DNA of 27,349 nt, from positions 1 through 27,349 of IMG/VR virus record IMGVR_UViG_3300049173_000085. The stretch is one strand, 5' to 3'. Shown here one piece after another: positions 2,690-25,500 of the stretch. Position numbers and translations under genes: made by a program. Origin of the DNA: a virus (taxonomy: Duplodnaviria > Caudoviricetes). The stretch's first letter is position 1. Every line of letters starts with the position of its first letter. The notes under the pieces are model-generated. The model saw only the letters and a list, made by a program, of their open reading frames with translations, was not told the origin of the DNA and searched no databases.

Positions 2690-3391
2690 TCAGGACGCCA
2701 GGCAGAGATCGCCCGCGACCGGCGTGTAGGCGCAGACGGCCTCGGGCGGCGGCACGGAGGTGAGGAAGTAGCGCCGGTGGCAATTCGCGCCCACCGGGGT
2801 GAGCATCGGGCCCGCGGTACCGGCCGCGTCGATCGGCAGGACGTCGTACGGGCCGACGCCCCAGCCACCGCCGGACCGGGTGGCGCCAGTGAGCTGGAGG
2901 GTGACCGCCTCGCTGCCGATCTCCAGGTCGCCGAGCATCCCGTTGCTGACCCACGGCAGCAGGTAGTACAGCCAGGCCCCGCCGGTGCCCTCAGCCTCAC
3001 AGACGTCCTCGCCCAGGGCCTCCGCCCAGAATTCGAGGGCGAAACCACTGCGGCACTGCACCGAGCAGTCGTCGTAGCCGATCGGTTCACCGTCGAACCC
3101 GTACACCACCGGATTGCCCGTGGTGATCTCGATGAATTCTGGCGACACGGAGAAAAAATTGACCTCCACGTCGTAACCGTTGAACGTTGGACAACCGCGC
3201 TTGAAGCCACACTGGCGGCCATTCGCGGCGCGGTAGTTGACGTCGTCACCCTCGTCGACGTTGGGGTTCATCGCGATGGACGCCAGACAGTCGAAGGTGA
3301 ACCCGTTGTCTTCGCCGCAGACAGGGCGACCGCAGGCATCGAGCCTGGTAACCCGGACGGTGTCCAGGTTGCTGATCAGGGGACATGGCAT
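2690..3391 (-). CDS. Major tail (tube) protein, 233 aa
   Basis: ATG at 3391 with SD GGGAGG; VRVTRLDACGRP, FALEFW, YYLLPW and WGVGPYDV motifs of cluster-B-like siphophage tail tube proteins. Confidence 0.8.
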   Translation of the reverse strand: MPCPLISNLDTVRVTRLDACGRPVCGEDNGFTFDCLASIAMNPNVDEGDDVNYRAANGRQCGFKRGCPTFNGYDVEVNFFSVSPEFIEITTGNPVVYGFDGEPIGYDDCSVQCRSGFALEFWAEALGEDVCEAEGTGGAWLYYLLPWVSNGMLGDLEIGSEAVTLQLTGATRSGGGWGVGPYDVLPIDAAGTAGPMLTPVGANCHRRYFLTSVPPPEAVCAYTPVAGDLCLAS

Positions 3392-3419
3392 GGCCAAGAC
3401 CTCCCGGTAGATCAGGAGG

Positions 3420-3455
3420 CCCGGCCCAAAACCAGCGGCGCTTTGACCCAGCATA
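3420..3455 (-). promoter_or_regulatory. Putative late promoter (-10 TATGCT) plus conserved leader motif, copy 1
   Basis: TATGCT at 3455-3450, then 11 nt, then CCGCTGGTTTTGGGCCGGG (3438-3420). Confidence 0.65.
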
Positions 3456-5466: not shown

Positions 5467-5473
5467 GCTGCTC

Positions 5474-5638
5474 CTACTCCTGGTTCTCTTCTGCTGGGGC
5501 GGGCACGACGATGATTCCGGCGGCCTCGTTGAACTCGGCCTCCGTGACTTCGCGGTAGCCGTCCGGGACGACCCCGAACACCTCCGCGTCACCGCTGAGC
5601 GAGATCCACCCGCCGGATTCGTTCACGAAGTAGCGCAT
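5474..5638 (-). CDS. Small acidic protein, putative fibre-assembly chaperone, 54 aa (absent from ORF track)
   Basis: SD AGGAG; MRYFVNESGGWISLSGDAEVFGVVPDGYREVTEAEFNEAAGIIVVPAPAEENQE*; fills the gap between genes; paralogous to 6733-7029 and 11909-12121. Confidence 0.7.
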   Translation of the reverse strand: MRYFVNESGGWISLSGDAEVFGVVPDGYREVTEAEFNEAAGIIVVPAPAEENQE

Positions 5639-6701: not shown

Positions 6702-6732
6702 GAGGAGGCTCCGTCTCGTGAAAGTGGAACTG

Positions 6733-7029
6733 TCAGGCGCCGCTGTCCGGGCCCATGTAGCCGGTCAGGCGGCGCGTGGTCGCCTCCGGGACGCCGAGCG
6801 CCCGCAGCGCCTCGTAGTCGGCCTGCTGGTTCGCCTCGGTCTCCTGGGTGAGCTGCTGGGTGTGGGCCTGCCGCTGCTCCTGGACGTCGGCGAGGGCGTC
6901 GGCGTACTCGGCTTCGGTGAGCGCCGTGGCCCCCTCGGGGAGCGGCGGCGCCTCCGCGTGGTCACCGGTCACCGTCCGGGACGCCAGGGCCCCGCCAGCA
7001 GTCCGGTAGTACAGGGATGCGTCTGCCAT
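6733..7029 (-). CDS. Putative fibre-assembly chaperone, 98 aa
   Basis: SD AAGGAG; LPEGATALTEAEY resembles the Tfa-type PxxAxE(I/L)(T/S)EEEY motif; directly follows a fibre-like gene. Confidence 0.5.
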   Translation of the reverse strand: MADASLYYRTAGGALASRTVTGDHAEAPPLPEGATALTEAEYADALADVQEQRQAHTQQLTQETEANQQADYEALRALGVPEATTRRLTGYMGPDSGA

Positions 7030-7042
7030 GGAACGGCGCTCC

Positions 7043-8059
7043 TTACAGGACGATCACGAAGGCGCGGAGGAAGCTCTGGACGCGGTTGTACGTCGCGCCT
7101 CCGCTGCCGCGGCCCATGCGGATGGACAGGGTGAAGTTCAGGCTTCCGCCTGCGGGGATGGTGCCGCCTGCGACGACCTTGGTGGCCTGCGCGTGGGTGT
7201 CGAGGATGGCCGTCGTGCCGCTGTTGCGCAGGTACCAGGTCTCGTCTGTGGCGATGCCGAGCGCGGCCCCTGCTCCTGCCGGGAGGTTGAAGTCGGCGTC
7301 GACCTCGCCCTCCATGAGGAGGAACGCGGGACGGCAAGCGTCCGGGTTGTTGACCGTCATGGTGTGCGTTGCGACCTCGGTGTCCTGCGCAGCAGGTACA
7401 GCCACGTCGGCGAAGTCGAGGACCTGCTGATCCTGTTGGTGGGTGATCTGGCCGCGCGGTTCGGAACGGAGCTGCCCGCTGCTGTCGCAGTACACCCCGC
7501 CCGCGTTGGCGTCCACGTCGCACGGGTACGGCCAGGTCCCCACCATCGCAGTCAGTGGCGCCCCAGCGCTGCCGTCGCCGGTCAGGCCGCACCCCGTCCC
7601 GGGCGGCGTCGCGCTCACCTCGTACGGATCGGCCGCCGATCCGGTGCCCGTGACGGTCACACCCGGGCCGGCCTCCACGACCGTGCCCTCAGCGGCGATC
7701 GTGCCGGTGGTCTCGTCGTAGGTGACGCCGTCCCCCGCCGTGAGGCAGGTGCGGACCTGCGCACACTCCAGGAACAGCCCGTCAGGGCCTTCCTGGATGA
7801 GGTTGCCGCCGCCACCGGGCGGGGCCGGGTCGAGAATGACTTCCGAGCTGACGATGTACGGGTCACCCGCCGCACCGGTACCGGTGACGGTGGTATCCAC
7901 AGTGGTGGTGTCGCCGGCCTGAACGACGGTCGTGCCGCCCGAGCCGCTGTCACCGCTGATGACGTAGGGGGCCCCCGACGAGCCGTTGCCTTCAACGGTG
8001 ATGCCGGGGCCGGCGATGACGCGGCAGGTGCAGCGTTCCGCGCCGCAGCAGTTAGCCAT
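7043..8059 (-). CDS. Cys-rich fibre-like virion protein, paralog A, 338 aa
   Basis: ATG at 8059 (MANCCGAERCTCRV), SD GGAG; N-terminal ~115 aa nearly identical to 5649-6701. Confidence 0.6.
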   Translation of the reverse strand: MANCCGAERCTCRVIAGPGITVEGNGSSGAPYVISGDSGSGGTTVVQAGDTTTVDTTVTGTGAAGDPYIVSSEVILDPAPPGGGGNLIQEGPDGLFLECAQVRTCLTAGDGVTYDETTGTIAAEGTVVEAGPGVTVTGTGSAADPYEVSATPPGTGCGLTGDGSAGAPLTAMVGTWPYPCDVDANAGGVYCDSSGQLRSEPRGQITHQQDQQVLDFADVAVPAAQDTEVATHTMTVNNPDACRPAFLLMEGEVDADFNLPAGAGAALGIATDETWYLRNSGTTAILDTHAQATKVVAGGTIPAGGSLNFTLSIRMGRGSGGATYNRVQSFLRAFVIVL

Positions 8060-8092
8060 GAGGGGGCTCCGTCTCGTGGAGAGGTGGAGTCG

Positions 8093-8127
8093 CCCGGCCC
8101 ACAACCAGCGGCGTCACGTCGAGTCTA
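8093..8127 (-). promoter_or_regulatory. Putative late promoter (-10 TAGACT) plus conserved leader motif, copy 2
   Basis: TAGACT at 8127-8122, then 10 nt, then CCGCTGGTTGTGGGCCGGG (8111-8093). Confidence 0.6.
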
Positions 8128-8961: not shown

Positions 8962-9438
8962 TCAGGCGACTCGGTGGAATCGAAGGGTGGTGCGGGCGTT
9001 GACGTCGGAACCCAGACCGGCCAAATCCGTGCTGCCGACGGCGTTGATGTCCTGCCGGACGGCTTGGAGGCGGATCGTCCGCGCGGAGGTGACCGCATAC
9101 TCGACGCTGATCGCAGTGGACCCGTTCCACGCCAGCCCAGTGGCCGCCGTCCCGCCGTACTCGGAGATCTGAACAACGATGGCTTCACTGTTGGGGACGA
9201 CCGTCCCCGACGTGACATCGAACAGGCGGGCACCGACGAAGGCGTTCTCCCCCGCCGTCATACGGCCCACGTTTCCGCGAACGACGGCGTCGAGGTGGTA
9301 CGTCCCGGCCGTCGGAAGCACGAGCGAAAGCGCGGTGTCGACGAACACCCCTGAAGCGGCACTCATGAGGTTCATGGGCGCGGGGAGGACGGCGAACCCG
9401 CTGCTGCGGATCTCCACGCTGGCGGCGGTTCCGGTCAT
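8962..9438 (-). CDS. C1q/TNF-like jelly-roll protein, paralog 5 (no N-terminal Cys module), 158 aa
   Basis: ATGA overlap at 9435-9438; LVLPTAGTYHL..ARLFDVTSGTVVPNS..TIRLQ aligns with the neighbours. Confidence 0.65.
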   Translation of the reverse strand: MTGTAASVEIRSSGFAVLPAPMNLMSAASGVFVDTALSLVLPTAGTYHLDAVVRGNVGRMTAGENAFVGARLFDVTSGTVVPNSEAIVVQISEYGGTAATGLAWNGSTAISVEYAVTSARTIRLQAVRQDINAVGSTDLAGLGSDVNARTTLRFHRVA

Positions 9439-9923
9439 GCCGGGGTGTCTCCCTCCGGGCCGACCCAGTGGGCCGTGATGTACGTGCGGCCGTCCGGATT
9501 GCTGACGACGGCGGCCGTCCCGTCCGTGCCAGGGCGCCAGGCGGCGAGTTGCACTGTGTCCCCGGCGGCGAACGTGTGCATGAACTGGCGTGAGCCGCAC
9601 GCCTGCACGTTGCCGCCCTGGTCGCCCGCCGCTTGGCTGAGGTAGACCACCATCGCCTCGGTGCCGGGGACAAGAGCACCGTTCTTGTACATGCCGCCCG
9701 TGACGCCTGTCCCCGTAGCCGCTGCCGATCCGGGAAGGGCTGCGACGCCACGCATCTGGTAGTTGACCTCCCACACCCCGGCGCGCGGGATGGTCAGCGT
9801 GGGCACCTCAGGGAGAACCTCCCACGTCCGCACTGGCGCAGTGATCGTGTGGAGGAAGTCGAGCGTGCCTGTCTGTGCCCACGCTCCGTCAACTCGGTTG
9901 AGGCTGGCGGCCGTGCCGGTCAT
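9435..9923 (-). CDS. C1q/TNF-like jelly-roll protein, paralog 4, 162 aa
   Basis: LTIPRAGVWEVNY..MYKNGALVPGT..ACGS..FAAGDTVQL closely follows the C1q/BclA-CTD pattern. Confidence 0.65.
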   Translation of the reverse strand: MTGTAASLNRVDGAWAQTGTLDFLHTITAPVRTWEVLPEVPTLTIPRAGVWEVNYQMRGVAALPGSAAATGTGVTGGMYKNGALVPGTEAMVVYLSQAAGDQGGNVQACGSRQFMHTFAAGDTVQLAAWRPGTDGTAAVVSNPDGRTYITAHWVGPEGDTPA

Positions 9924-10612
9924 CAGTCGCTCACCTTCTGCCAGAGGATGCCCTGCTGGTTGGTGGTGCTGCTCAGGTAGTGCTGGAGGTTGGCGTTAGC
10001 CTGCGTCCCCCCGTCGGCAGTGGCCCGCAGTCCCCGGATCTCATACGTCGTGGGAGCTGCGATCGTGACGTACCCCTCACATACCGCGTTGCCTCCGATC
10101 GACTTGAGGCCAGTGTCCGGGTTGACCGTGCCGGGCTCGTCGTGGAGAAGGACCTTCCTCGGACTGCCGGGCACGAACGCATTCGTTGCGGTGTTGACCC
10201 ACAGGGCGTTGATCGACGCGATGTGCCGGCCGTTGAAGTTCCACGTGGCGAGCCCGAACACGTGGGCGGTGAGCCGGTAGACGCCCGGCTCGGGCAACAC
10301 CACCTGACTGTTCGGCAGGGGCACTTGCTGGCCCAGAGCCGACGTCCGCAGGTCCGCGGTGCCAGCGTTGAGAGTCCCGAATACCGGGGTGAGTCGCGCG
10401 CCGACCGTCCAGGTCTCCGGGCATGCCCCGGCGGCCGGGGGCGTCACGTCCACGTCGACGGACCGCTCGGTGCCGACCGCCGTGCCGGGGGCGATGCCCG
10501 TGACCTCCGTACCCGGCACGAGGAGGCCGCGCGCCGTCTGCGTCAGGGCGTTGCACGCCGCCGGGTCCAGCTTCGGGTCGATGCGGTACGTACGCCCGCA
10601 CGCTCCGGCCAT
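9923..10612 (-). CDS. Cys module + C1q/TNF-like protein, paralog 3, 229 aa
   Basis: MAGACG..DPAACNALTQ..GACPETWTVGARLTPV then VLPEPGVY..; ends KVSD; TGATG coupling. Confidence 0.7.
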   Translation of the reverse strand: MAGACGRTYRIDPKLDPAACNALTQTARGLLVPGTEVTGIAPGTAVGTERSVDVDVTPPAAGACPETWTVGARLTPVFGTLNAGTADLRTSALGQQVPLPNSQVVLPEPGVYRLTAHVFGLATWNFNGRHIASINALWVNTATNAFVPGSPRKVLLHDEPGTVNPDTGLKSIGGNAVCEGYVTIAAPTTYEIRGLRATADGGTQANANLQHYLSSTTNQQGILWQKVSD

Positions 10613-11259
10613 CAGTCGCTCACTTTCCGGTAGCGGAAGTTATGGGCCCACACGACCTTCTGAAAGGTGGTTCCAACGTCGGTACGCCAGGACCCGTCAA
10701 CGCGGATCGTTGCCGGGCTGGTCACCTGATACAGCGCTGCCGCCGAGGCGTTGGCCTGGATGCCGGTGGTGCCCGTGGCGGTCTGATCGGTGAACAGGAT
10801 GATTCGCCGTGCAGTCAGCGGGACCTGGGCGCCGGCGGTGACGTCGAAGACTCGGGCGTCGATGATCGCGTTGCCGACACCGGCCGCCCACCCGATGGAC
10901 CCCTGCACGTCCGCGACCACCTCATATACGCCCGCCTCCGGCAGCACCAACTGCGCGCCGGTGACGGGAACCCACGTGTTGGCGGCAGCCGCATCAAGGG
11001 ACACAGCCCCCGAGGTCTGCCCAGAGACGGGCGTGAGCCGAGCACCGACCTGCCACGTCTCGGGGCACGCCCCAGCAGCCGGCGGCGTGACGTCGATGTC
11101 GACCGAGCGCTGCGCCGACACCGCGCCGCCAGGGGCGATGCCCTGGAGGGCCATGTGCGGGACGAGGAGCCCGCCCGCCGTCTGGGTAAGGGCGTTGCAC
11201 GGCGCAGGGTCCACGGGCGCGTCGACGCGGTACGTACGCCCGCAGCAGCTACCGGCCAT
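10612..11259 (-). CDS. Cys module + C1q/TNF-like protein, paralog 2, 215 aa
   Basis: Start ATG at 11259 (MAGSCCGRTYRV), TGATG overlap; ends KVSD. Confidence 0.7.
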   Translation of the reverse strand: MAGSCCGRTYRVDAPVDPAPCNALTQTAGGLLVPHMALQGIAPGGAVSAQRSVDIDVTPPAAGACPETWQVGARLTPVSGQTSGAVSLDAAAANTWVPVTGAQLVLPEAGVYEVVADVQGSIGWAAGVGNAIIDARVFDVTAGAQVPLTARRIILFTDQTATGTTGIQANASAAALYQVTSPATIRVDGSWRTDVGTTFQKVVWAHNFRYRKVSD

Positions 11260-11909
11260 CAGTCGCTCACCTTCACGAACCCGAGGCGTGGCCCTCCGAG
11301 GATCGCCTGTGTGGAGTCGTTGAAGCCGACGTGCTGCCGCAGCCCTTCCACGCGGATCGTCGTCGGCCCGGTGACGGTGAGGAAGGTGCTGACGCTGCCC
11401 GCGTTCTGCAGGGACATCACCGTGCCACCGCCGGGATCGTTGATGTTGCCGAACTGGATCCGCCGGTTGGAGCCGGGCACGAGTGCCCCCGCGGTGACGT
11501 TGAACAGACGAGCGTTGATCGCCACCGCCCACGGCGTGGTCGCGTTGATGTGCGAGTAGAAGTCGGCTGACAGGGCGTACGTCCCAGCCTCGGGCAGCAC
11601 AACTTGGGCACTGGTCGCCACCCATGTCCCGGAGGCCACGGCTTGCAAGTTCGCATCCGCCCCGAACACTTCACCGCTGACGGGGGTGAGGCGCGCCCCG
11701 ACCGTCCAGGTCTCCGGGCAGGCACCGGCGGCCGGTGCCTGGACGTCGACGTCGACCGAGCGGGTCGCCGAGACCGCGCCGCCGGGGGCGATCCCGGCGA
11801 CCTCGGCGTGTGGCACGAGGAGCCCGGCCGCCGCCTGCGTGAGCGCATTGCACGGCGCCGGGTCCAGGCGCGGGAAGACTCGGATTGACCCGCAGCAGCT
11901 CCCCGCCAT
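11259..11909 (-). CDS. Cys module + C1q/TNF-like protein, paralog 1, 216 aa
   Basis: MAGSCCG..; VVLPEAGTY..ARLFNVTAGALVPGS; ends KVSD. Confidence 0.7.
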   Translation of the reverse strand: MAGSCCGSIRVFPRLDPAPCNALTQAAAGLLVPHAEVAGIAPGGAVSATRSVDVDVQAPAAGACPETWTVGARLTPVSGEVFGADANLQAVASGTWVATSAQVVLPEAGTYALSADFYSHINATTPWAVAINARLFNVTAGALVPGSNRRIQFGNINDPGGGTVMSLQNAGSVSTFLTVTGPTTIRVEGLRQHVGFNDSTQAILGGPRLGFVKVSD

Positions 11910-12128: not shown

Positions 12129-15100
12129 TCACTTCCAGGTCCAGTTGAGGAGGTAGCTCGCCCCGGCGGCTGCCCCGGCGAAGGATGCGGCGGCGAGCGC
12201 GGTGTCACTGTCCTGCGCGACGGACCACGTCATCGTGACGCCGGCCGGGATCGGCACCGCCGCGCCGTCCGACATGGTGACGTTGACCGTGCCCGCGAGG
12301 ACGGTCAGGCTGACGCTCTGGACACCGGCGAAGCTGCCCGCGAGGTTCTGTGGTGCGGTGCCGGTCACGGCCCGTACGCCGGTGCTCAGCGGCCCAGGCA
12401 GCGCCTCCGCGGCGGTGCACTCGACCGGCGCGACCGGCGTATACGGCTGGGTGAGGTCGCCGTCGAGGAACGCGCCCAGGAGTTCGGGGTCGGCCCCGCC
12501 GCAGGGGTCGACGGCCCACAGCTCGGTGTACTGGACGTCTCCGAGGCCGTCGCCGTCGGTGTCGTCGCAGCCGCACCGCTCCACCACCTGCTTGGCGCAC
12601 GAGGTGCTGTTTCCTGCCTCTCCGCCGCATGGCGCCAGATGCCAGCCGTCCGGGACGACGTCCTGGCGCTGCCCGTCCTCGTCCAGGTAGTAGACCGAGT
12701 CATCGCAGCAGACCATCCGCGTCCACGAGCGGGTCTCGGGGATGACCTCATAGGTGACCTTCAGGTGGACCATCAGGCCGGCGCCGCCGCCGACGGTCTC
12801 CTCCACGTCGAGGTAGAGGAAGTTCCGGCCCGCCTGCGCGCCCGGGACGGTGGCGGGGCCGAACGTGTACGTCGTCCCGTTGTGCGTGGCCGTCGCCGGC
12901 AGGGCCTGCCAGGCACCGTTGTTCAGCCGGAACGCGCGGCCGATCTGGTCGGCGTTGAACACCGTGGCCTGGACCTGGATGGTGGCCGGGTCGGCGTTGT
13001 CCGGCAGGTCGAAGTAGGCGCGCGGGTACCAGTGCTGAGCGGTGAGGGTCGGGCCCTCGTTGGGCAGCGCGGGGCTGGACTGCTGGATGCCGCCGGTCGG
13101 GTGCGGGCTCACCCACCAGGCCGGGCGCGCGGTGTCGGAGTCGGTGACCGACCAGGCCGCCGAGTACTGGTACTCGTACATGTCGTACCAGGGCGGGTTG
13201 GCCACGCTGAGGTCCGGAGTCCACTTCCATACCGGGTCCACAGAGCTGTTGTTGAGGTGACCCTCATTCGAGATGAACTCGACTTCTTGGGTGGGGTCCT
13301 GCTGGATGCAGACCTGGACCGGCTGGCAGCAGGACTCCGGCTCAGGCGGCTTGGGCGGCTCGCACACCCCGGCTGTCCCGGCCACGGTGTAGAGGGTGGT
13401 GCCGTCGAGGAGGGTGTCCGTGACGGTGGGGGTTCCGTCGCAGGAGCGGCAGATGTGCCGCAGGAACGGGCCTCCGGGCACCACCGACACAGCGCCGGCC
13501 CAGTAGGTGAAGAACACGCCGCACGCCGCCACGCGGCTATTGGGTGCCGGTGCGGTGGTGAACGAGGTGACCGCGCTGGCGGTGCGGAACCGGGCACTAC
13601 TCGCGATCAGCGGGTTCGTCACGTACGAGCACGGGTCGGGCGGCACGCCGTCCGCGGTGCGGGTCAGAACTCCGGTGGTCTCGTTGTAGGAGTAGCCGTC
13701 TGGCAGGTAGACGGCCTCCAGGCCGGCCGGGAGCTGAGCCCAACTGATCGACGGGTTGGCCGTGTAGTAGCGGACGTACACCGAGAACTCGACGATCGAG
13801 GGCCGAGAGAACGTCCACTTCGTTGGCGCGGTGACGGAGTGAGGGAAGCTGTGCAGTCCCCACCAGGAGCCGTCAGCGTTGCTGAGGTTGGCCGCCATCG
13901 CCGTGGTGTTCGTGGCGCCGGTGGACGTCCAGCCGACGCCGTTGGACAGGGTGCCGGATGAGGCGGTCCCGGTGATCGTGACCGGCGCGGCCGTGGGCAT
14001 GTCGCACAGCACCAGCGTCTCGCAGTCGCGGCAGCCCGGGCACACGCCCACGGTGGCCCCGGCCGGGACGGTCACCGGGTTTCCGGTGGCCGGGTCCACC
14101 AGGCGCGAGCCGACCACCGCGCCGGCCGAGTCGTACAGCACCTCTCGCCGTACCTGCTGGAGGACCGCCCCGGTGGCGCTCAGGACGCACAGGGGGATGG
14201 TCTCGACGTCGACCGGCACGTCTGGTGCGCACTGCTGCACGGTGCCGGTCGGCGTGTAGGCGGTGCCGTCGAGGGCGTAGTCGCTGTGGGCGACGATGGC
14301 GCCGGTCTCGTCCCTGCGGTAGTCCCGCACCAGGGGCACGCTGGTGCCGTCCGCCTGGACGTCACACAGGATCAGCGCGTCCTGCTCAGGCTGCTCGACT
14401 CCGGCCGGGCAGGTGGTGACGGTACCGGTCGGGGTGTAGGTGGTGCCGGTGACGGCGTCGACCAGGCGCACGGAGGCGATCGCCCCGGTGTCGTCGTAGT
14501 GGTACTCGACCAGCACCAGCCCGACGACGTCCCCGGCCGTGTCGATGTCGCAGAACGTACCGGCGAGGCTGATGGACCGGGATTCTCCGCACGCCACCGT
14601 CCCGGTCGGGACGGCGCCGGCCGTCCACGCCCCTGTGACGAGGTTCAGCCACCCCTCGGACGTGACCGTGCCGGTGCAGTCCCGGACGATCGTCACGGCG
14701 ATCGGTGTGCCGTCCGCGAGGCACAGGCCGACGCTCGTCGTCGGGGTCGTCGGGGAGGCACAGCCAGGGTCGGCGGGGCACGGCACCAGGACGGGGGCGG
14801 TGACGTCCTGGCCGGTCTCGACGTCCACGTACGTGATGGCCGAGTCGTCGCATCCGGCGCAGCGCACCGCGGCGGCCTGCCGGACGGTGCCGGTGCCGTC
14901 GTCGTAGCAGACGTGGCCGAGGACCAGCGGCGGCGGGTCGTCCGGGCTGCTGGTGCCGCACGCGCCCACGGTGCCGGTCACCGTGTACTCGGTGGTGCCG
15001 TCGAGGTCGGTGTCCGTGATCGTCGGGGTGCCGTCGCAGTCCCGGCAGATGTGCCGCATGAACGGGAGGGCCTGACCCGTGCAGCCGGTGACCGGCACCG

Positions 15101-15929
15101 GGCCCACGGTGACCGCGCCGTCCGTCACGGTCCACGTCTTGGGGTTCGTGTCCGTGCCGTCCGCCCCGGTTTCGAGGTCGAACTCCACCGTCACGGTCCC
15201 GGCGAGGAGGGACGCGACGGGAACGGTGTTCGTGATCGTGGCCGTCCTGGTCGACCCGGCCGGGAAGAACGCCCCCGAGCCCTGCCCGAAGTTGTCGACG
15301 CCCGGCAGCAGGGTCACGCCGTCCCACATGGACAGGCGGCCATACCAGTCCCACGCCCCACCCGTGCCGTCGTTGCGATAGGTGACGGTCGCGGTGAGGT
15401 CGACGGTGCCCGCCGGGTCCAGGTCGCCGCAGGCGGCGTCCCCGAGGCCGAGGATCACGCCGTAGTGGGTGTGCGCGCCGTCGTCGGCGCCGCCCGGTGC
15501 TGCGCCCGGGACGCTGACGGTCTGCCCCGACCAGATCGCCTCTGCGTCCGCGTCGCTGCCGTTCCTCGGCTGGCCGCTGATCTGCTGCCCGGCCGGGACC
15601 TGGAAGCCGGTGGCGGTGACCGGCGCGGTCGAGGTGGGAACAGTCGCGGTGTCGCACAGGATGACCGTCTGGCAGTCGGGGCAGTCGCTCGACGCCCCGC
15701 AGGGCTGGAGCGTGCCCTGCACCGTGTACGGGGCGCCGGTGACTGGATCGACGGTGCGGGTGCCTACGCGGTCGCCGCTGCTCGTGTCGTAGACCGGCTC
15801 GACGAGGACGGTGGCCGCGGCCGTGCCGTCCGGGAGGACGTCGCACAGTAGGACCGCCTCGACGTCGACTCGGGGCGTGGCGGTGGCGCCGCTGACGATG
15901 ACGGGCCCCTGCCCGCAGCATCCACTCAC
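12129..15929 (-). CDS. Large Cys-rich repeat scaffold 2 with three inserted domains, 1266 aa
   Basis: Long ORF with GC-rich third positions, GTGA coupling; about 10 Cys-bounded ~50-aa repeats; DxDxDG loop; no signal peptide. Confidence 0.8.
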   Translation of the reverse strand: MSGCCGQGPVIVSGATATPRVDVEAVLLCDVLPDGTAAATVLVEPVYDTSSGDRVGTRTVDPVTGAPYTVQGTLQPCGASSDCPDCQTVILCDTATVPTSTAPVTATGFQVPAGQQISGQPRNGSDADAEAIWSGQTVSVPGAAPGGADDGAHTHYGVILGLGDAACGDLDPAGTVDLTATVTYRNDGTGGAWDWYGRLSMWDGVTLLPGVDNFGQGSGAFFPAGSTRTATITNTVPVASLLAGTVTVEFDLETGADGTDTNPKTWTVTDGAVTVGPVPVTGCTGQALPFMRHICRDCDGTPTITDTDLDGTTEYTVTGTVGACGTSSPDDPPPLVLGHVCYDDGTGTVRQAAAVRCAGCDDSAITYVDVETGQDVTAPVLVPCPADPGCASPTTPTTSVGLCLADGTPIAVTIVRDCTGTVTSEGWLNLVTGAWTAGAVPTGTVACGESRSISLAGTFCDIDTAGDVVGLVLVEYHYDDTGAIASVRLVDAVTGTTYTPTGTVTTCPAGVEQPEQDALILCDVQADGTSVPLVRDYRRDETGAIVAHSDYALDGTAYTPTGTVQQCAPDVPVDVETIPLCVLSATGAVLQQVRREVLYDSAGAVVGSRLVDPATGNPVTVPAGATVGVCPGCRDCETLVLCDMPTAAPVTITGTASSGTLSNGVGWTSTGATNTTAMAANLSNADGSWWGLHSFPHSVTAPTKWTFSRPSIVEFSVYVRYYTANPSISWAQLPAGLEAVYLPDGYSYNETTGVLTRTADGVPPDPCSYVTNPLIASSARFRTASAVTSFTTAPAPNSRVAACGVFFTYWAGAVSVVPGGPFLRHICRSCDGTPTVTDTLLDGTTLYTVAGTAGVCEPPKPPEPESCCQPVQVCIQQDPTQEVEFISNEGHLNNSSVDPVWKWTPDLSVANPPWYDMYEYQYSAAWSVTDSDTARPAWWVSPHPTGGIQQSSPALPNEGPTLTAQHWYPRAYFDLPDNADPATIQVQATVFNADQIGRAFRLNNGAWQALPATATHNGTTYTFGPATVPGAQAGRNFLYLDVEETVGGGAGLMVHLKVTYEVIPETRSWTRMVCCDDSVYYLDEDGQRQDVVPDGWHLAPCGGEAGNSTSCAKQVVERCGCDDTDGDGLGDVQYTELWAVDPCGGADPELLGAFLDGDLTQPYTPVAPVECTAAEALPGPLSTGVRAVTGTAPQNLAGSFAGVQSVSLTVLAGTVNVTMSDGAAVPIPAGVTMTWSVAQDSDTALAAASFAGAAAGASYLLNWTWK

Positions 15930-18900
15930 AGGGTGACTCCGATCGTGTACGAGACGGTGACGGTGCCGCTGTCGGCGGCGATGGTGAGGGGGCCGGTGAG
16001 GAGGGCGTCCGCGTCACGGGCGACGCTCCAGGTGGCCGCCTCGCCGGTGTGCAGGGTGCTCGTTCCGTCGGCGGTGGTGACGGTGCCGGTGCCGCCGTGC
16101 GCGACCGCGGTGACGGACTGAAGCGTCGGCCAGGCCGCCGCACTCCAGGACTGGCCGGCCGCGAGCTCGCGGCGTCGGGCCTGGACGCCGAACGCGGGCT
16201 CTGCGCCCTCCTCGTCGTCGAGGGTGTCGCAGTCGATCGGCGCGACTGGGGTGTAGGGGCCGGTGAGACCGTCGGTGTAGGTGCCGAGGCTGGTGAGGTT
16301 GCCGTCGCAATCGACGGCCAGTAGCTCGACGTAACCCACGTCTGGCAGGCCGTCCGCGTCGGTGTCATCGCAGCGGCACGCCTCGATTACGTTCTGCACG
16401 TCGCACGGCGTGACCGTCCCGGCCGTCGCACCGTCCGCGGTGCACGCGCCCGCCTCGCCTTGCACGGTGTACGGGGTGACTCCGTCGAGGCCGAGGTCCT
16501 CGGTTGAGGTGAGGCCGCCGTCGCAGTCGAAGGTGAAGCGCCGCAGGAACGGTGTGCGCGTGAGGGTGAGCGCTGCCGTCCGCACCTCCTGTGGCATGAG
16601 GAACAGGTCACGGTCGTTGACCGGGCCGCCAGTCGTCTGGTCGGTGAAGCGGATCCGGACCGTTCCCGTGGCCGGGGCGATGAACTTCACCGGCGGCAGG
16701 TCCTCGGTCAACATGCCGCCCGGGAACACATTCGACCCGTTGGAGACGTTGCGAGTCCTGTTGGCGAGCACCGTGGTGCCGTCCAGGATCTCCAGGAGAT
16801 AGATCGCGTTGTTGGTGGCCGGGGTGGGATTTCCGGCGCCGACCCACGCGGACGCGAACCGGAACTCGTACAGCACGGTCGGGAGGAGTCCGCTGACGGT
16901 CAGTTCCGCTACGCCGTTGGCGGGCTGGTTGGCCTGTGCGAACCACAGGGTTGTGCCGTTGTTGGCGGCCACCACGTTCCCGGTCAGGGCGAAGTCGCGC
17001 GCCGGGGTCGGGATCGGGGCCTGCGGGTCATACGTCAGGTCGCAGAGCTGGGCGACCTCTGTGTCCCCGCACGGCTCGACGACCGTGCCGCCGCCACTGG
17101 CCGGGGTGCACTGTCCCGGCTCCCCGGTGACGGTGTACGGGTCGCCGTCGAGGGTGGTGTCCGTCACGGAGACGACCGCGCCGGTCTCACAGTCGAGGGT
17201 GATGCTGCGGAGGAACTGCGCGGCGCATCCGGTCTGGTCGTAGGCCACGGTTGCGGCGAAGTCGTCGAGCTGCCACCCGGTGCGGCGCGGCGGCGGGCAG
17301 GTGGCGCCGCTGTCGTCGTAGGCGTCGAAGGCGAGCGCGACGGCGATGTTCCCGGCGGCGAGGTCGCCGGCCGGGACGTCGGCCTCGACGGTGAGCGTCC
17401 CCGTCCACCCGGCGGGGGTGTCGGGCGGGGCGAGCGCGAGAGCTACCCGGTTCGCTTCCCCGGTGCCGTTGTAGAGGCCGAGGAATCCAGTGGCGCGGCA
17501 GCCGTCATCGGGGCCGAGCTGGGTGACGTCGACCTGCACCGTGACGTGTGCGGTGCCGGTGTCGCAGACCGGCCGCGGGGCCTGGAGGATCGCCGCGGCG
17601 GTCCGTACGGTGCCCCCGGTGCCCGGCTGCGGGCCTGCCGCGTCGGGGAGGGTCAGCGTGCCGCCGTCCCAGAGGGCTTGCGCGCCGGCCGCAGGGACGC
17701 CCGTGGTGTACGGGTAGTAGGGCGCCCCGGGGGTGTCGGTGACGGTCGGGGTCGGCGTGCCGTCTGTCGGCAGGTCGCACAGCAGGACCGTGCTCGTGTT
17801 CCGGCACGGCTCTGCCTCGGGCGCGCACTGGCCGACGGTGCCGGTGATGACGTACGGCGTGGTCCCGTCGAGCCTGGTGTCCCGGGAGTTGGTGACCTGC
17901 CCGGCGCAGTCGTAGACGAGGTGCCGCAGGAAGGCGGTCACGGTGCCGTCGAGGGCCGTGTCGCACAGCGTCAGTGTCTCCGTCTGCCCGCACGGATCCG
18001 TGTCCGGGGAGCAGGTACCGACGGTACCGGCGACGGTGTACGAGGTGCCGTCGAGACCGTAGTCCGTGTGGCCGTTGATCTGGCCGGTGCTGACGTCGCG
18101 CCGGTAGTCCCGCAGGAACGGGACCGATGTACCGTCGGCCTGGACGTCGCACAGGACGGTCAAGTCCTGGTCGGCGGCGGGCTGCCCTGCGCCGGCCGGA
18201 CACACCGTCAGCTCGCCCTGCAGCGTGTACGTGCTGCCGTCGGCCGGGTTGATCAGGCGCACAGACGCGAGGGAGCCGTCCGGGTTGTACTCGTACTCGA
18301 CGAGGACGACGCCGAGGACGTCACCGGTGCCGGGGTCGACGTCGCACAGCAGGCCGGCCAGCTCGAAAGCCCGGCTGTCCCCGCATGCCTGCGCACCGGC
18401 CGGTGGCGCGCCCGCACTGTAGGTGCCGGTGGTGAGGTTGAGCCATCCGTCCTGTGTGACGGTGTCGGTCGCGCAGTCCCGGGTGACGACGACGGCGATC
18501 GGTGTGCCGTCGGCGAGACACAGGCCGAGCGTCGCGGCCGGGGTGGTCTGCTCGGCGCACGGGGTGGCGCCGCTACCAGCGTCGCCCGCGCAGGCCCCGA
18601 CGGTGCCGGTGACGACGTGCGGAGTCTGTCCGTCGAGCGCGACGTCCTCGTACGTCGCTGTCCCGCTGAGGAAGACGTACCGGCGCAGGAACGGGCCGCT
18701 GGCGTCGCACAGCATCACCGTCTCGTGGTCGGGGCAGCCGTAGGTGCAGTCGACGGGCGAGATCGGCACGTAGGGCACCGACGGGTCGTCCTGGTAGGTG
18801 AGGACGAGTTCGGCGCTGCCGTCGGCGCGGATGCACCACAGCTCGCTGTAGGTGGCGTCGGCCGCGCCGTCGCCGTCGGTGTCGTCGCACAGGGCGCGAC

Positions 18901-19171
18901 ACACGGTGTCGACGCATCCGGCCTCGCACGGCCCGGCGTCGGTGGGGAGCGCGCCGGGAGTGAAGGTGCCGGCGACGTCGAGCCAGCCGACGACTTCGGG
19001 GTCCTCGGGGGCCTCGCCGCACTCGACACATCCGGAGCGGACGACGGCAAGGATCGTCGTGCCGTCGGCGCGGCACAGCGGTGCCGAGGCGACCGAGGGC
19101 GCGCAGCAGGTGGTGACCTCGATCGGTGTTGATCCGCCCTCGGGCGCGCAAGGTACGGGCTCGACCGGCAC
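15926..19171 (-). CDS. Large Cys-rich repeat scaffold 1 with two inserted domains, 1081 aa
   Basis: Starts immediately after upstream TAA; about 10 repeats; two DxDxDG loops; paralogous to 12129-15929. Confidence 0.8.
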   Translation of the reverse strand: MPVEPVPCAPEGGSTPIEVTTCCAPSVASAPLCRADGTTILAVVRSGCVECGEAPEDPEVVGWLDVAGTFTPGALPTDAGPCEAGCVDTVCRALCDDTDGDGAADATYSELWCIRADGSAELVLTYQDDPSVPYVPISPVDCTYGCPDHETVMLCDASGPFLRRYVFLSGTATYEDVALDGQTPHVVTGTVGACAGDAGSGATPCAEQTTPAATLGLCLADGTPIAVVVTRDCATDTVTQDGWLNLTTGTYSAGAPPAGAQACGDSRAFELAGLLCDVDPGTGDVLGVVLVEYEYNPDGSLASVRLINPADGSTYTLQGELTVCPAGAGQPAADQDLTVLCDVQADGTSVPFLRDYRRDVSTGQINGHTDYGLDGTSYTVAGTVGTCSPDTDPCGQTETLTLCDTALDGTVTAFLRHLVYDCAGQVTNSRDTRLDGTTPYVITGTVGQCAPEAEPCRNTSTVLLCDLPTDGTPTPTVTDTPGAPYYPYTTGVPAAGAQALWDGGTLTLPDAAGPQPGTGGTVRTAAAILQAPRPVCDTGTAHVTVQVDVTQLGPDDGCRATGFLGLYNGTGEANRVALALAPPDTPAGWTGTLTVEADVPAGDLAAGNIAVALAFDAYDDSGATCPPPRRTGWQLDDFAATVAYDQTGCAAQFLRSITLDCETGAVVSVTDTTLDGDPYTVTGEPGQCTPASGGGTVVEPCGDTEVAQLCDLTYDPQAPIPTPARDFALTGNVVAANNGTTLWFAQANQPANGVAELTVSGLLPTVLYEFRFASAWVGAGNPTPATNNAIYLLEILDGTTVLANRTRNVSNGSNVFPGGMLTEDLPPVKFIAPATGTVRIRFTDQTTGGPVNDRDLFLMPQEVRTAALTLTRTPFLRRFTFDCDGGLTSTEDLGLDGVTPYTVQGEAGACTADGATAGTVTPCDVQNVIEACRCDDTDADGLPDVGYVELLAVDCDGNLTSLGTYTDGLTGPYTPVAPIDCDTLDDEEGAEPAFGVQARRRELAAGQSWSAAAWPTLQSVTAVAHGGTGTVTTADGTSTLHTGEAATWSVARDADALLTGPLTIAADSGTVTVSYTIGVTL

Positions 19172-20605: not shown

Positions 20606-22231
20606 TCAGGCGATCGGGCAGGTGAGGCCGAGCTGCTCGCCGGTGCGGCCGTCGGGGCAGACCGGCACGGTGACGATGCGGGACTCCGGGCCACGGTCGA
20701 TGAGGGCCACGCACTCTTCGCTGAAGGCCGCGGTGTAGTCGTTGGTCTGGAACTTCGTCGAGTCGTGGATCACGCCGAGCGAGATCTCGCCGCCGCGTCC
20801 GATCTGGAAGGCGCCCGCCGGGTGGATCAAGAACGGGATGGAGTCGGGCCAGTCCACGGCCGGGGTCGGGCCGCCGATCTGCGCGGGGACGTTCGGGGCG
20901 AGGCCGCGCGCCCACTGGACGCGCACGCCGAGCGTGGCGAAGGCGTTGATGATGCACGCCGGGTCGATCTCGTCGCAGCCGACGCCGTTACGGCGGGCGA
21001 TGTCCGCGAGGAACATCGACCGGGCCCACCACGGGAACACGACCTCGATGTTGATCGAGTCGCACAGGCTGTGCCGCTCAACCATGTCGGCGGCCTGCAG
21101 AGCGACCGCCGCGAAGATCGCGGAGAACGCGCCGAAGGTCGCGGCGATGGTGACCGGGGTGGACGCGGCCACCGCCTGCTCGAACAGGACCTGACGGACG
21201 CGCAGTTCGTGCGCGACCATCGTGTTCCTCTGGTACCACGCCACCAATTCCGGAAAATGACGCTGCGTCAGGATTCCGGCCTGGAGGCACACGCCGACCG
21301 CGTCACAGCGGACCTCTTCCGGCTCCGGGCAGGGAATGACGAAGCATGGCTTGACCGCGCCGCTGATGTCGTCCGCCTCGGTGTGGACGAACGTCATCGA
21401 GCCGACGTCCAGCGACGGGATCTTGAAGAACCGCAGGCCACCGCGAGCGAGCTGCACCTCGGGCGCGTCCCACAGCATCTCCGGACAGGCGATGTCCGTC
21501 AGCGTGTAGACGGTCTCCGACGGAGCGCACCAACCGCCGCTCGCGACGATGTTGCCCTGCGGCAGGCGGGACTGGTCGGCGGCGAGGATGACCGCGCGGG
21601 TGCCCTCCGTGCCCGAGCTGGAGTCGTTGACGATGAGGTTGTTGTCGAACGGCAGTCGGTAGCTCGCGCACAGGCCGACGCCACCACCCGCCGTCTTCAA
21701 CGCGTTGGCGCGGCGGATGATGCCCTCGGTCACGCCCTCCATGTCGAGGGGCTGGCCCGGCTGGTAGCCCGGGACGTCGACCGAGGCGGTGATCTCCGGG
21801 CGCGGGTTCGGGTCCGGGGGCAGCACGCGCGGCTGATGGACGCGGACGCGGGACAGGTCGAGGGCGCGCTGCTTGACGACCGCGGAGGCACTGACGGGCT
21901 TGGCGGGCTCGGGCTCGACGACCGGCTCCGGTTCGGCCGGCTCCTCGGGCTCGTCGGAGGCGGTGACCTCCTCGCCATCGTCGCCGCGCACCGAGGCGGC
22001 GAGCTGCTCGATCTCGGCGGCTGCCTTCTCGGCGGCCTCCATGCGGTCGGCCTTCTCGGCGCGGATGTCATTGACCGCGGTGGCCAGCTCGCGGAGCTTG
22101 GCCAGATCGTCGGTGGTGACGGTGCTGCTGCCCGCCTTCGCGTCGAAGGCCCGCACAGCGCCTTCGAGAAGGTCGTCCAGCTCTTCGTCGTTGAGGGCAG
22201 TGATGTCCTCGGGAAGGGAGAACTCTTCCAT
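20606..22231 (-). CDS. Major capsid (hexamer) protein with N-terminal scaffold-like helical domain, 541 aa
   Basis: ATG at 22231; acidic coiled-coil N-terminus, then ASGGWCAPSETVY, RGG, KPC..IPCP and LGVIHDS..NDY motifs of cluster-B-like HK97-fold capsid proteins. Confidence 0.85.
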   Translation of the reverse strand: MEEFSLPEDITALNDEELDDLLEGAVRAFDAKAGSSTVTTDDLAKLRELATAVNDIRAEKADRMEAAEKAAAEIEQLAASVRGDDGEEVTASDEPEEPAEPEPVVEPEPAKPVSASAVVKQRALDLSRVRVHQPRVLPPDPNPRPEITASVDVPGYQPGQPLDMEGVTEGIIRRANALKTAGGGVGLCASYRLPFDNNLIVNDSSSGTEGTRAVILAADQSRLPQGNIVASGGWCAPSETVYTLTDIACPEMLWDAPEVQLARGGLRFFKIPSLDVGSMTFVHTEADDISGAVKPCFVIPCPEPEEVRCDAVGVCLQAGILTQRHFPELVAWYQRNTMVAHELRVRQVLFEQAVAASTPVTIAATFGAFSAIFAAVALQAADMVERHSLCDSINIEVVFPWWARSMFLADIARRNGVGCDEIDPACIINAFATLGVRVQWARGLAPNVPAQIGGPTPAVDWPDSIPFLIHPAGAFQIGRGGEISLGVIHDSTKFQTNDYTAAFSEECVALIDRGPESRIVTVPVCPDGRTGEQLGLTCPIA

Positions 22232-22265
22232 GGGGCCGGGCTCCAAATGATCGATCTTGGAGTGA

Positions 22266-22303
22266 CCCGGCCCAAAACCAGCGGTCGATTTGTGCCGATA
22301 TTA
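22266..22303 (-). promoter_or_regulatory. Putative late promoter (-10 TAATAT) plus conserved leader motif, copy 3
   Basis: TAATAT at 22303-22298, then 13 nt, then CCGCTGGTTTTGGGCCGGG (22284-22266). Confidence 0.65.
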
Positions 22304-22383: not shown

Positions 22384-22560
22384 CTACTTCTTCGGCTCGT
22401 GCTCGCGAACGACGCTGCCGGGGTACCGCTTGGCGACGTTGTCGGCGACGGTCTTGTGCCCCGAGGAGAACACGATCTTCTCCTTCGGCTTCTGCGTCTT
22501 CGGGTCCGTGACGGTGGTGACGACCTCGAACTTCTTCTTGTTCTGGCAGGCGCACGGCAT
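22384..22560 (-). CDS. Small basic CxC protein, 58 aa (absent from ORF track)
   Basis: MPCACQNKKKFEVVTTVTDPKTQKPKEKIVFSSGHKTVADNVAKRYPGSVVREHEPKK*; ATG 1 nt after protease stop; strong GC3 bias. Confidence 0.75.
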   Translation of the reverse strand: MPCACQNKKKFEVVTTVTDPKTQKPKEKIVFSSGHKTVADNVAKRYPGSVVREHEPKK

Positions 22561-22561
22561 A

Positions 22562-25500
22562 TCAGTGGGCTCCGTTCGGTGCGGCGCTCGCGGTGATCTC
22601 CTCGGGCGTGAGCGCGAGGGAGGCTTGCAGGGACGCGACCTCGGCCCGGCGTGCGGCCTCCCGCTCGGCTACCCGGTCCAGGAACCGGTCTACGAGCGCG
22701 TCGCTGAGGAGGATCTCCTCCGCTGCTGCGACAGCGGCGTCCGGACGCCGTCCGGACGCATCGTCCGGACGCGGTCCGGGCAGGTCAGGACCGGTGTCCG
22801 TCGAGCTCACGGACGACGTCCGGACGGCGTCCGGATCCTGTCCGGACACGACGTCCAGGACCGGCATCGGGCCGGCGGCCGAGGCGGCCAGCGCGAGGTT
22901 GGACCGCTCGATCACCGCGGCGACGAGCGGTGAGGAGTGGCCAGGCACGGGCACGTCCAGCACGGCCCGCAGCTCCCAGCCGCCGCCCTGGCGGGGGCGG
23001 AGGTGGTAGCTGGGCTGGCACGCCCGGAAGACGGCCTTGTCCCAGTCCGACAGCCACGGCGCACCCGCGCCCGAGAACCAGAGCCCGCCGTCATTCATGC
23101 CGACGGTGACGATCGCTCCCACCGTGCCGCTGTTGTCGAACTGGCAGGCCGCGTTCTCACACTGGGCACCGTCGCGGTTGTGGCCTGTGTTCATCGTCAT
23201 GGCGCCGACGCGGATCTCGCTGCCGTCGTCGAGTCGGAACTTGGCCCGAAGGAAGTGACTGAAGTCCAGGCCCTCGCGGGCGAGCTTGTCGATGGTCAGC
23301 TTCTTGCCGGGGTAGCCGGCGTGCGGCACACCGGCCTGGGCGACCCAGCCGAAGACCCGGCCGTCCTTGTAGTGGACGCCACCCGATCCGGGCGGCAGCT
23401 CCTCCGCTGTCGGCTCCTTGAACCACTGGGCCGGCATCGGCGGCATGTCCTGCATGGCCTGCCACGCCGACGCCTCCAGGTCGGCCAGCATCGCCGCCTC
23501 GATCTCCTCCTCGTCCTGCCAGGGCGGAGTAATCGAGTCGTCGTCAAAGGCCTCGGCGAGCCGCTCGTACAGCTTGGTGACGCGGGAGCGCAGGTCGTCC
23601 ATCTCGTCTGCGGGGACGTCGACGCCGCCCATGCCGCCCTGGAGGACGGAGGCGATCGTGTAGACAGCGTTCGCCACGATCTCCAGGCGCGGGGTGCCGT
23701 CGTTGTCGAAGACGTCGGCGAAACCGAGCTTGTACGCGGCGAGGGTGGTCGGGTCGGCGTCCGGGTCGCGCCACAGGAACGCCGAACCGAGCTTGTCGGC
23801 ATCGACGTTGCCCTCGTCGTCGGTGGCCCAGGCCAGGACGCGGGAGCTGGCCTTGTCGCCGTCCCATTCGGCGTCTGGCTGGTCGTGCACCGGCAGGTCG
23901 AGCTTCCCGGACATCGCCGCGGTGACGTCGCCGTCGTGGCCTTCGGGCATGGTGGAAGGTCCGCAGAACAGGCCGGGCGCCAGGCGGATGATCCTGCCTT
24001 CCTTGGCAGCCGCGTTGAGGTGACCGCGGGCGGTGCTCATGGCGATACCGATCGCGGTGGAGACATCTCGAGCGCCTACGGCGGCCGGGGAGGTGCACAC
24101 GTAGGTGATGACCCGCTCGCGGGTCTCCCCCGCCGCAGTGATGCTCGGCTGGACGGCGGCCGCGGTCTCGTCGGTCGGGTCGAGGACGATCTTCGCGTCC
24201 TTGAACGCTGGCATCGCGACCAAGGTGGCGCCGCGCAGCCGGGCGCGGGTGATGCGCAGCAAGAACTCGCCGGACTTGGACTCATGGACGACGAGGCCGG
24301 TCTCAGGGTCGTCGGCGTCGCCGGCTGCCGCGGTGAGGACGCCGGTCCCGCCGAACGCCTTCGTGAGGGCGGAGGCGTTGACGGTGCCGCCCGGACCGGT
24401 GATGAGCTGAAGGTCGTAGCGGGACCAGGCCAGGGAGGTGCCTGCGGCGGTCACCTGCGGGTTGGTCGACGCGGTCAGCATCACCGCGCCGTCTTCCATC
24501 CGCATGAGGCTGGCGTGCGGCAGGTGCGCCGAGGCGAACAGCCACTCGGCGTCTTCCGGGGACAGGGTCTTGTCGACGAACTCCAGGTCGACGTCGTCCA
24601 GGTCGACGCTGATGCCGAGTACCGGGTCGTCCTCGTCGAGGAGCTGCTCGGCGTCCAGTCCGGCCGGCTGGTTGCGGTAGAGCACGCCGGAGGCGGTGAT
24701 GCGGGTTCCTTCCCGCTTCACCTTCCTGATGGCGCCGGCGAGGCGGGCGCCCTGGTGGCCCATCAGCAGTTCGTCGGCGTACTGCAGCGGCATGGGCTGG
24801 CGGTCCCACTTGAGGGCGCCCTTCTTGAAGGTCCGGCCGTCGCCGGTCTCCTCGTCCTCGTAGGCGATCGCCCACGGGTCGGGCGTCGACCAGCCCCGGA
24901 CCGTCAGCGGGATGAAGTCCTGGGCTACGTCGGCGGCTGCTTCAACGTCTTCGGTGGGCATGGGCTCCTCCTGCTGCGGGCCGAGGGGGATATCGGTGTG
25001 GTCGCCAGCGAAGGCGAGGCGGACTCGGTCGAAGGTGATAGGCCCGAGGCGGTCGACGAGGGCGGGCAGGAGGCCGTGGTCGTCGCTGTACTGGGCGCAT
25101 ACGTGCGGCGCCCACGGGGAGTGCTGCACGGGCAGTTCGGGGCGCTCGTGGGTGTCCTCCAACGCCGTGGTGACCAGCAGGCGGACGTCTTCCAGGGCCG
25201 GGGCGCCGTCGGGGCGGTCGCGGTCGTCGCCGACGGCCCACACCCATGACGGGCTGTCGCTGTGGGGGTTCCAGTGGTTCACGCCGAACGCGTTGGCTGT
25301 GAGAGAGCCGGGCAGGTCGGCGACGGCGGCACGGACGTTGCCGATCAGCTCGTTGCGCTGGTCCTCGGTCCAGGCGCCGCCGTCATCGCCGAGGAAGTAC
25401 AGCGTCAGATGCAGCTCCTCGGGCACTTCGCCGCCATCGAGGGCGAGGCGGGCCGCGTCCTCCGCGGTGGGCATGAGGGCGATCATTCCGCCCATGAGGT

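Follow-up and report, generated by a model that had tools for sequence, protein, structure and literature searches.

The window analyzed here, a stretch of 27,349 nucleotides (positions 1-27,349 of IMGVR_UViG_3300049173_000085), is the late region of a Streptomyces phage, with its genes on the minus strand. Based on Pfam and PHROG matches, these genes include those for a portal, a MuF-protease fusion, a major capsid protein, a glycosyltransferase, a major tail protein and a head-tail adaptor. The capsid protein is nearest to those of Streptomyces phage TurkishDelight and the Woodruffviruses and falls in the 'major capsid hexamer' lineage, which also takes in Gordonia and Mycobacterium phages. 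The initial annotation had labeled the three genes of interest capsid, tail and fibre; PHROG matches support the first two labels (Table 1), whereas the third gene, which is tail-associated, gave no Pfam or PHROG match and is referred to as fibre-like. Inserted between the capsid and tail genes, at 12129-19171 and 8962-11909 (minus strand), are genes for two giant Cys/Asp-rich repeat proteins (phrog_18824) and a run of phrog_25393 paralogues, and a two-domain GT4 glycosyltransferase is encoded at 3496-5592.

Table 1 Features of the three leaders and neighboring genes in the window.
Feature	Position	Strand	Evidence or remark
Small basic CxC protein, DUF7196 family	22384..22560	-	just upstream of the capsid leader
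TANNNT (-10-like) box, capsid leader	22298..22303	-	sequence; ends 15 nt before the bulged G of the motif; putative promoter
21-nt bulged hairpin, capsid copy	22265..22285	-	A-U variant of the outermost pair; 34.5 bits
SD-masking stem, capsid leader	22233..22273	-	SD GGAG 22241-22244; ATG 22231
Major capsid (hexamer) protein gene	20606..22231	-	phrog_777, E 3.8e-154
TAGACT (-10-like) box, fibre-like leader	8122..8127	-	sequence
21-nt bulged hairpin, fibre-like copy	8092..8112	-	38.1 bits
Weaker SD-masking stem, fibre-like leader	8062..8095	-	SD GGAG 8067-8070; ATG 8059
Tail-associated gene with Cys-rich N-terminus, 'fibre-like'	7043..8059	-	ORF
TATGCT (-10-like) box, major tail leader	3450..3455	-	sequence
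21-nt bulged hairpin, major tail copy	3419..3439	-	37.8 bits
SD-masking stem, major tail leader	3392..3426	-	SD GGGAGGT 3399-3405; ATG 3391
Major tail protein gene	2690..3391	-	phrog_792, E 7.7e-88

Each of the three genes is preceded on the minus strand by the same series of elements, namely a TANNNT box, a 21-nt motif and a stem over the Shine-Dalgarno (SD) sequence. The leader strings given in the initial annotation match the minus strand letter for letter (22232-22272, 3392-3426 and 8062-8095), and in all three CTCC pairs with the SD and the 3' half of the motif forms the stem base, as had been claimed. Taken as 19 nt, the motif occurs three times in the window compared with 0.06 copies expected from shuffles. 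When the leaders were folded alone in windows of ~60 nt, the capsid and tail leaders surpassed dinucleotide shuffles (z -3.10 and -3.34; 1/200 shuffles as good), with longer fold windows giving z values of merely -1.69 and -1.59, but the fibre-like leader did not (z +0.61; 150/200 as good). Forcing the motif's hairpin to form lowered the predicted cost of opening the SD-to-start region from 19.4 to 8.5 kcal/mol in the capsid leader, from 23.7 to 13.8 kcal/mol in the tail leader and from 13.6 to 7.8 kcal/mol in the fibre-like leader. A paralogue of the fibre-like gene retains the apical SD hairpin at window positions 6701-6735 (minus strand) with G-U-tolerated changes; it has neither the motif nor a -10 box, lies directly behind a stop codon and is perhaps opened by translational coupling.

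Sequence comparison resolved the motif into a hairpin with a helix of 3 bp, a bulged G, 1 bp, a bulged U and then G-C, G-C and Y-G pairs closing a 5-nt loop. With the bulged G numbered 0, the seven pairs are -3:17, -2:16, -1:15, 1:14, 3:13, 4:12 and 5:11, and G0 and U2 are bulged. Among 115 distinct sequences, in an alignment that includes one misaligned row (L535), 98.1% of 802 cells were paired, compared with 15-55% in slid controls. Two-sided changes were found at four of the seven pairs (46 cells vs 8.4 in shuffles, which ignore the relatedness of the sites by descent). At 257 sites gathered without a pairing rule, the pairs -3:17, -2:16, -1:15 and 1:14 hold in 245, 252, 254 and 257 sites, respectively; 1:14 takes all four Watson-Crick types, and pairing at the positions flanking the hairpin is near chance. 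The invariance of the core bases is partly built in, since many sites came from exact patterns fixing part of the core. RNAalifold, unprompted, recovered the helix from 41 capsid leaders, and the many G-U cells in the hairpin pairs favor the RNA strand. The mini-hairpin initially ascribed to the motif is thereby identified as a seven-pair helix that covaries in homologs. Its commonest loops are UUGUG, UUUUG and UUCUG, with CCGAG in Gordonia cluster DC phages. The hairpin alone is weak (-3.4 to -5.1 kcal/mol), and therefore suits a binding site more than a stabilizer.

The exact pattern of the motif was found at at least 178 IMG/VR loci and a relaxed pattern at at least 177, together giving at least 272 distinct sites, some of which are chance matches of the relaxed pattern. 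Streptomyces prophages, TurkishDelight, the Woodruffviruses and Gordonia cluster DC phages carry the motif, in most cases ahead of genes for virion or lysis proteins; in complete genomes it is confined to the sense strand of such genes. In TurkishDelight, a covariance model located nine copies, all sense, at seven virion-gene leaders, those of the capsid, major tail (two copies), chaperone and tape measure (two copies) genes and genes 30, 32 and 33; it gave no copy at E<1 in the right-hand 43.6 kb, and no antisense copy was found on the opposite strand within three mismatches. Loop variants stand ahead of the capsid and major tail genes in the Woodruffviruses and ahead of the capsid, major tail, tape measure and lysin A genes in Gordonia phage Phlop, whose capsid leader has matches in 49 records at a coverage of at least 80%. 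When capsid loci were fetched by protein homology, the exact core was present in 45 of the 46 close loci, the remaining one having an extra base, and the core was present in 3 of the 34 distant loci. The motif is absent from Mycobacteriophage PG1 and from five distant phages, the latter forming one supported clade in a capsid tree of 17 rows that do not include PG1. A host-gene version of the motif was considered and rejected, as strong matches in five bacterial genomes cluster in prophage structural regions; most of the weaker matches inspected in these genomes lie inside coding sequence without a -10 box. Among 132 matches in a genome collection, most that combine box and helix lie ahead of phage-type genes. 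It is likely that the capsid, tail and lysis messages of this phage and of many Streptomyces and Gordonia relatives begin with the same conserved hairpin.

Several other arrangements were observed. The motif and a -10-like box precede a DAM-like phage methylase (L441:256-525), a poly-gamma-glutamate hydrolase (L276:345-614) and a weakly integrase-like ORF (L470:355-615). Tandem hairpin pairs, ~26-40 nt apart, occur in some major tail, tape measure and capsid leaders (L179:18510-18575 and 22900-22953; capsid leaders L602, L633 and L626). At G005:C1:18139-18261, two motif copies are divergent, and the capsid-like gene has the orientation opposite to that of the tail gene. In motif-negative relatives, the capsid gene is preceded by other leaders that are conserved and apparently structured, one kind per clade (L640-L643, L648, L652 and L653; L644, L656 and L657; L645, L646 and L669; L671 and L672; L668 and L670), and leader control may be general in this capsid lineage.

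The position of the motif relative to its neighbors is constrained on both sides. The bulged G follows the end of a TANNNT box (often TANNCT) by 9-17 nt at most sites and by 3-8 nt at none; the distances have a hard edge at 9 and no single spacing, being spread over nearly a helical turn. In 226 coding stretches of 60 nt, a hexamer of this kind was encountered just four times, and no -35 consensus was seen upstream of the box. Because a -10 box usually lies 6-7 nt from the transcription start, the hard edge at 9 suggests that transcription begins at or just before the first base of the hairpin. Judged by the promoter consensus, host RNA polymerase would thus start just ahead of the hairpin, and a box spacing that varies across most of a helical turn speaks against an activator site in the DNA. 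On the other side, the hairpin ends a median of 27 nt before the start codon (5-95%: 23-32), which would leave it outside the usual 30S footprint.

We then examined the SD-masking stem across leaders. From the at least 272 sites, 226 with an ORF and an SD-like signal were kept, and 223 of these passed the SD and length filters. The mean predicted cost of opening the SD-to-start region in these 223 leaders was 14.8 kcal/mol, compared with 11.5 kcal/mol after spacer shuffling and 8.7 kcal/mol for 157 motif-less genes of TurkishDelight and TP1604. Grafting the real motif 27 nt ahead of the motif-less genes left their cost at 8.8 kcal/mol, indicating that the GC content of the motif is not the cause of masking. 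With the hairpin forced, the cost fell to 8.4 kcal/mol (p=0.68 vs the motif-less controls), and it dropped by more than 1 kcal/mol in 191 of the 223 leaders; the corresponding values for 47 dereplicated leaders were 13.1 (free), 8.0 (forced) and 10.7 kcal/mol (shuffled). In 196/223 minimum-energy folds, at least three of motif nucleotides 12-17 pair downstream. For 60 leaders with a variant shared strand, the native masking stem was better than that after a swap to the common strand in 42, worse in 16 and equal in 2. Several capsid leaders change their 5' arm, shared strand and post-SD segment together, and tape-measure leaders have a masking stem with a compensated pair. The 3' strand shared by hairpin and masking stem covaries with both partners. 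The competition between masking stem and mini-hairpin suspected from the window thus held up: masking exceeds three kinds of control and depends on the 3' strand of the motif.

Masking differs among leader classes, whose names, except for capsid and major tail, rest on N-terminal patterns and the TurkishDelight annotation: the cost is 22.6 kcal/mol for tape measure, 19.0 for capsid and 10.0 for chaperone-type leaders, and two of the ten classes, chaperone-type (n=34, p 0.65) and 'VCVC' (n=31, p 0.30), were not above spacer shuffles. Three of the four Phlop leaders and the Mischief19 tail leader also have ordinary opening costs (7.8-8.8 kcal/mol). As the sites share descent, the p-values given here are overstated. 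When the leaders were folded stepwise, the hairpin was the minimum-energy structure for most lengths up to the point at which the post-SD bases are added and the long stem takes over; the apical SD hairpin forms once the SD is made and persists in the forced state. Forcing the hairpin costs ~12.6 kcal/mol under strict constraint, meaning that its capture must be tight or co-transcriptional. These folding models predict that the masking stem wins at equilibrium and that the forced hairpin returns accessibility to the level of ordinary genes.

We consider it fairly probable that virion and lysis mRNAs begin with a two-state translational ON switch formed by these leaders, in which the hairpin and the predicted masking stem share one strand and a putative factor holds the hairpin and frees the ribosome-binding site. 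In such a switch, the hairpin, weak alone, would fold first, and during transcription the factor would capture it by the fixed bases of its bulges and loop, just beyond the footprint of the ribosome. Capture would keep the basal stem from forming and allow ribosomes to load, and without the factor the message would stay untranslated, that is, off by default. The factor would more probably be encoded by the phage, as a late protein, than by the host; its binding, the direction of its effect and its timing are what we infer here.

Among other explanations, it is unlikely, in our estimate, that the hairpin is a promoter-proximal antitermination or attenuation element like lambda nut/boxB or HK022 put, which modifies RNA polymerase or recruits a factor, with the long GC stem serving as a U-less terminator or pause site. 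The lambda boxB/N and HK022 put RNAs are small promoter-proximal hairpins with specific unpaired bases that act on transcription, and the hairpin here resembles them in its unpaired bases and in its closeness to a promoter, as placed by consensus; according to their usual description, they do not alternate with an SD-masking stem as this one does. This explanation would suit the constant location of the hairpin at the inferred 5' end, the long operons behind it (~14 kb lie between the capsid leader and the next copy in the window), the tandem copies and the unmasked leaders that still keep a hairpin. Antitermination, however, does not require a competing stem centered on the SD and start codon, nor a hairpin-to-start distance confined to 23-32 nt. 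Moreover, TurkishDelight re-promotes seven times inside its late region, and one U-tailed terminator-like site was counted in 20 kb compared with 4.1 in shuffles, a count in which U-less terminators are unscored.

We regard as rather more doubtful a factor-free kinetic timer, in the manner of the MS2 maturation leader or type I toxin mRNA, in which a metastable hairpin delays the masking stem so that nascent transcripts alone are translated. The stepwise folding described above and the lack of a dedicated phage factor among our search results (see below) agree with it, but a fixed loop G and fixed bulges (G and U) are not required of a timer, and yet the core is exact in nearly all homology-fetched close capsid leaders; in addition, the hairpin is weak, and the apical SD hairpin is in place from the moment the SD exists. 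Still less likely, the hairpin may act at the 5' end in mRNA stability or processing, or may bind a repressor, such as an unassembled virion protein exerting feedback, with SD masking merely tuning stoichiometry. Although its location at the 5' end and the variation of masking strength by gene class fit this view, a held hairpin opens rather than closes the site in silico in most leaders, it ends beyond the usual 30S footprint, and capsid, the most abundant protein, has one of the strongest blocks, which would be odd without an activator. A DNA operator or stoperator-like site with RNA folds as by-products of GC-rich sequence is very improbable. The motif does share with cluster A stoperators, in the available part of their description (PMC3203893), an asymmetric and oriented form, multiple copies and locations close to gene starts, but it has compensated pairs with G-U wobbles, one-sided bulges, differing variants within one genome and a -10-box spacing spread over nearly a helical turn, and the graft control argues against masking by GC-richness.

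The proposed ON switch shares features with several reported systems. In phage Mu, Com binds a small hairpin with the loop motif CC(N)2-3GAG; as far as the accessible account goes, this hairpin lies beside and in part overlaps the structure that hides the translation start of mom, a late phage gene, and its binding is proposed to open that structure (PMC6483171). The hairpin described here likewise overlaps a start-masking structure, one obtained by computation, and one motif copy precedes a DAM-like phage methylase (L441). In contrast, Com controls one gene in that account, whereas the motif here occurs at up to seven leaders per genome, and none of the common loops contains CC(N)2-3GAG, to which the Gordonia DC loop, lacking the spacer, comes nearest. 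The host phylum also differs, and a Com-type CCCC zinc ribbon (PF10122) was found in none of the ten motif-bearing complete phage or prophage records searched at E<=1. The parallel with Com drawn in the initial annotation extends to the overlap of hairpin and masking stem and, in the ten records searched, not to the protein family. The best reading of this analogy is that the switch would work like Com/mom but serve a whole virion regulon. T4 late genes (I-TevI, segB, soc and e) similarly have a stem that sequesters the SD, which is freed in late transcripts starting inside the hairpin, according to the part of the report available (PMC2988022); unlike in T4, the TANNNT box here lies upstream of the whole structure and, scoring consensus boxes alone, inside it in 0/223 leaders. 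The SAS/ESAS repeats of cluster K mycobacteriophages, as described in the accessible text (PMC3203893), are also asymmetric elements near start codons of actinobacteriophages with a proposed role in translation, but SAS is a 13-bp sequence that contains the SD and lies 3-7 bp from the start of non-structural genes, whereas our motif, a hairpin with covarying pairs, leaves out the SD and is placed ~27 nt ahead of virion genes.

Rfam 15 gave no match in the window at the gathering score, and a search of 11 loci at an E-value threshold gave five chance matches (E 1-9), none on the motif. The CaiB repeats were considered and have a different sequence, as far as given in the available text (PMC9302106), and the accessible portions of PMC5559632, PMC13313380, PMC5737381 and PMC10690425 do not mention the motif. 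Our literature search found no description of it; the alignments of Fremin 2023 (IMG/VR-mined) and Weinberg 2017, which lie outside that search, might contain it. The motif is a real and, apparently, unpublished RNA element.

A candidate for the factor was sought among 18 sequences, several of them partial, comprising 12 motif-positive (window included) and 6 motif-negative ones. BLAST clustering, small-protein phmmer and domain tiles gave no phage protein or domain that was present in the motif-positive and absent from the motif-negative genomes, and G001-G005 gave no match to the 2H-type domain seen in the head polyprotein. The DUF7196 protein encoded just upstream of the capsid leader is a weak candidate. 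PF23826 matched 21 of 51 aligned relatives of this pre-capsid CxC protein and not the window's own copy, and 43/51 relatives have a pI >9. The protein is universal in the lineage, motif-negative members included, and very variable; its predicted model (pLDDT 78) showed no clear fold match (best Z 4.8, rmsd 3.8, 55 aligned). In the PG1 record (L507, ~9370-9641), the annotated start of the small pre-capsid gene appears to lie too far downstream; an earlier start would give the protein the CxC N-terminus of the family.

How late genes are switched on in actinobacterial phages is poorly known. To our knowledge, the translational activation documented in phages concerns single genes such as Mu mom, and no documented case covers a whole virion regulon. 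With a short motif, naturally occurring compensatory variants and cultured phages that have laboratory hosts (Gordonia cluster DC on G. terrae and Woodruffviruses on S. griseus), the proposed switch is directly testable, and a cognate activator-hairpin pair would give a compact translational switch for Streptomyces engineering. More tentatively, as a possibility we would not yet bet on, a phage lineage across Streptomyces and Gordonia may time its whole virion and lysis program post-transcriptionally: late mRNAs would arise in the locked state from minimal -10-only host promoters. A single RNA-binding activator, which may be the DUF7196 protein of the portal-protease operon or a host factor, would unlock them all via their shared 21-nt hairpin and take the place of the usual activator of late transcription.
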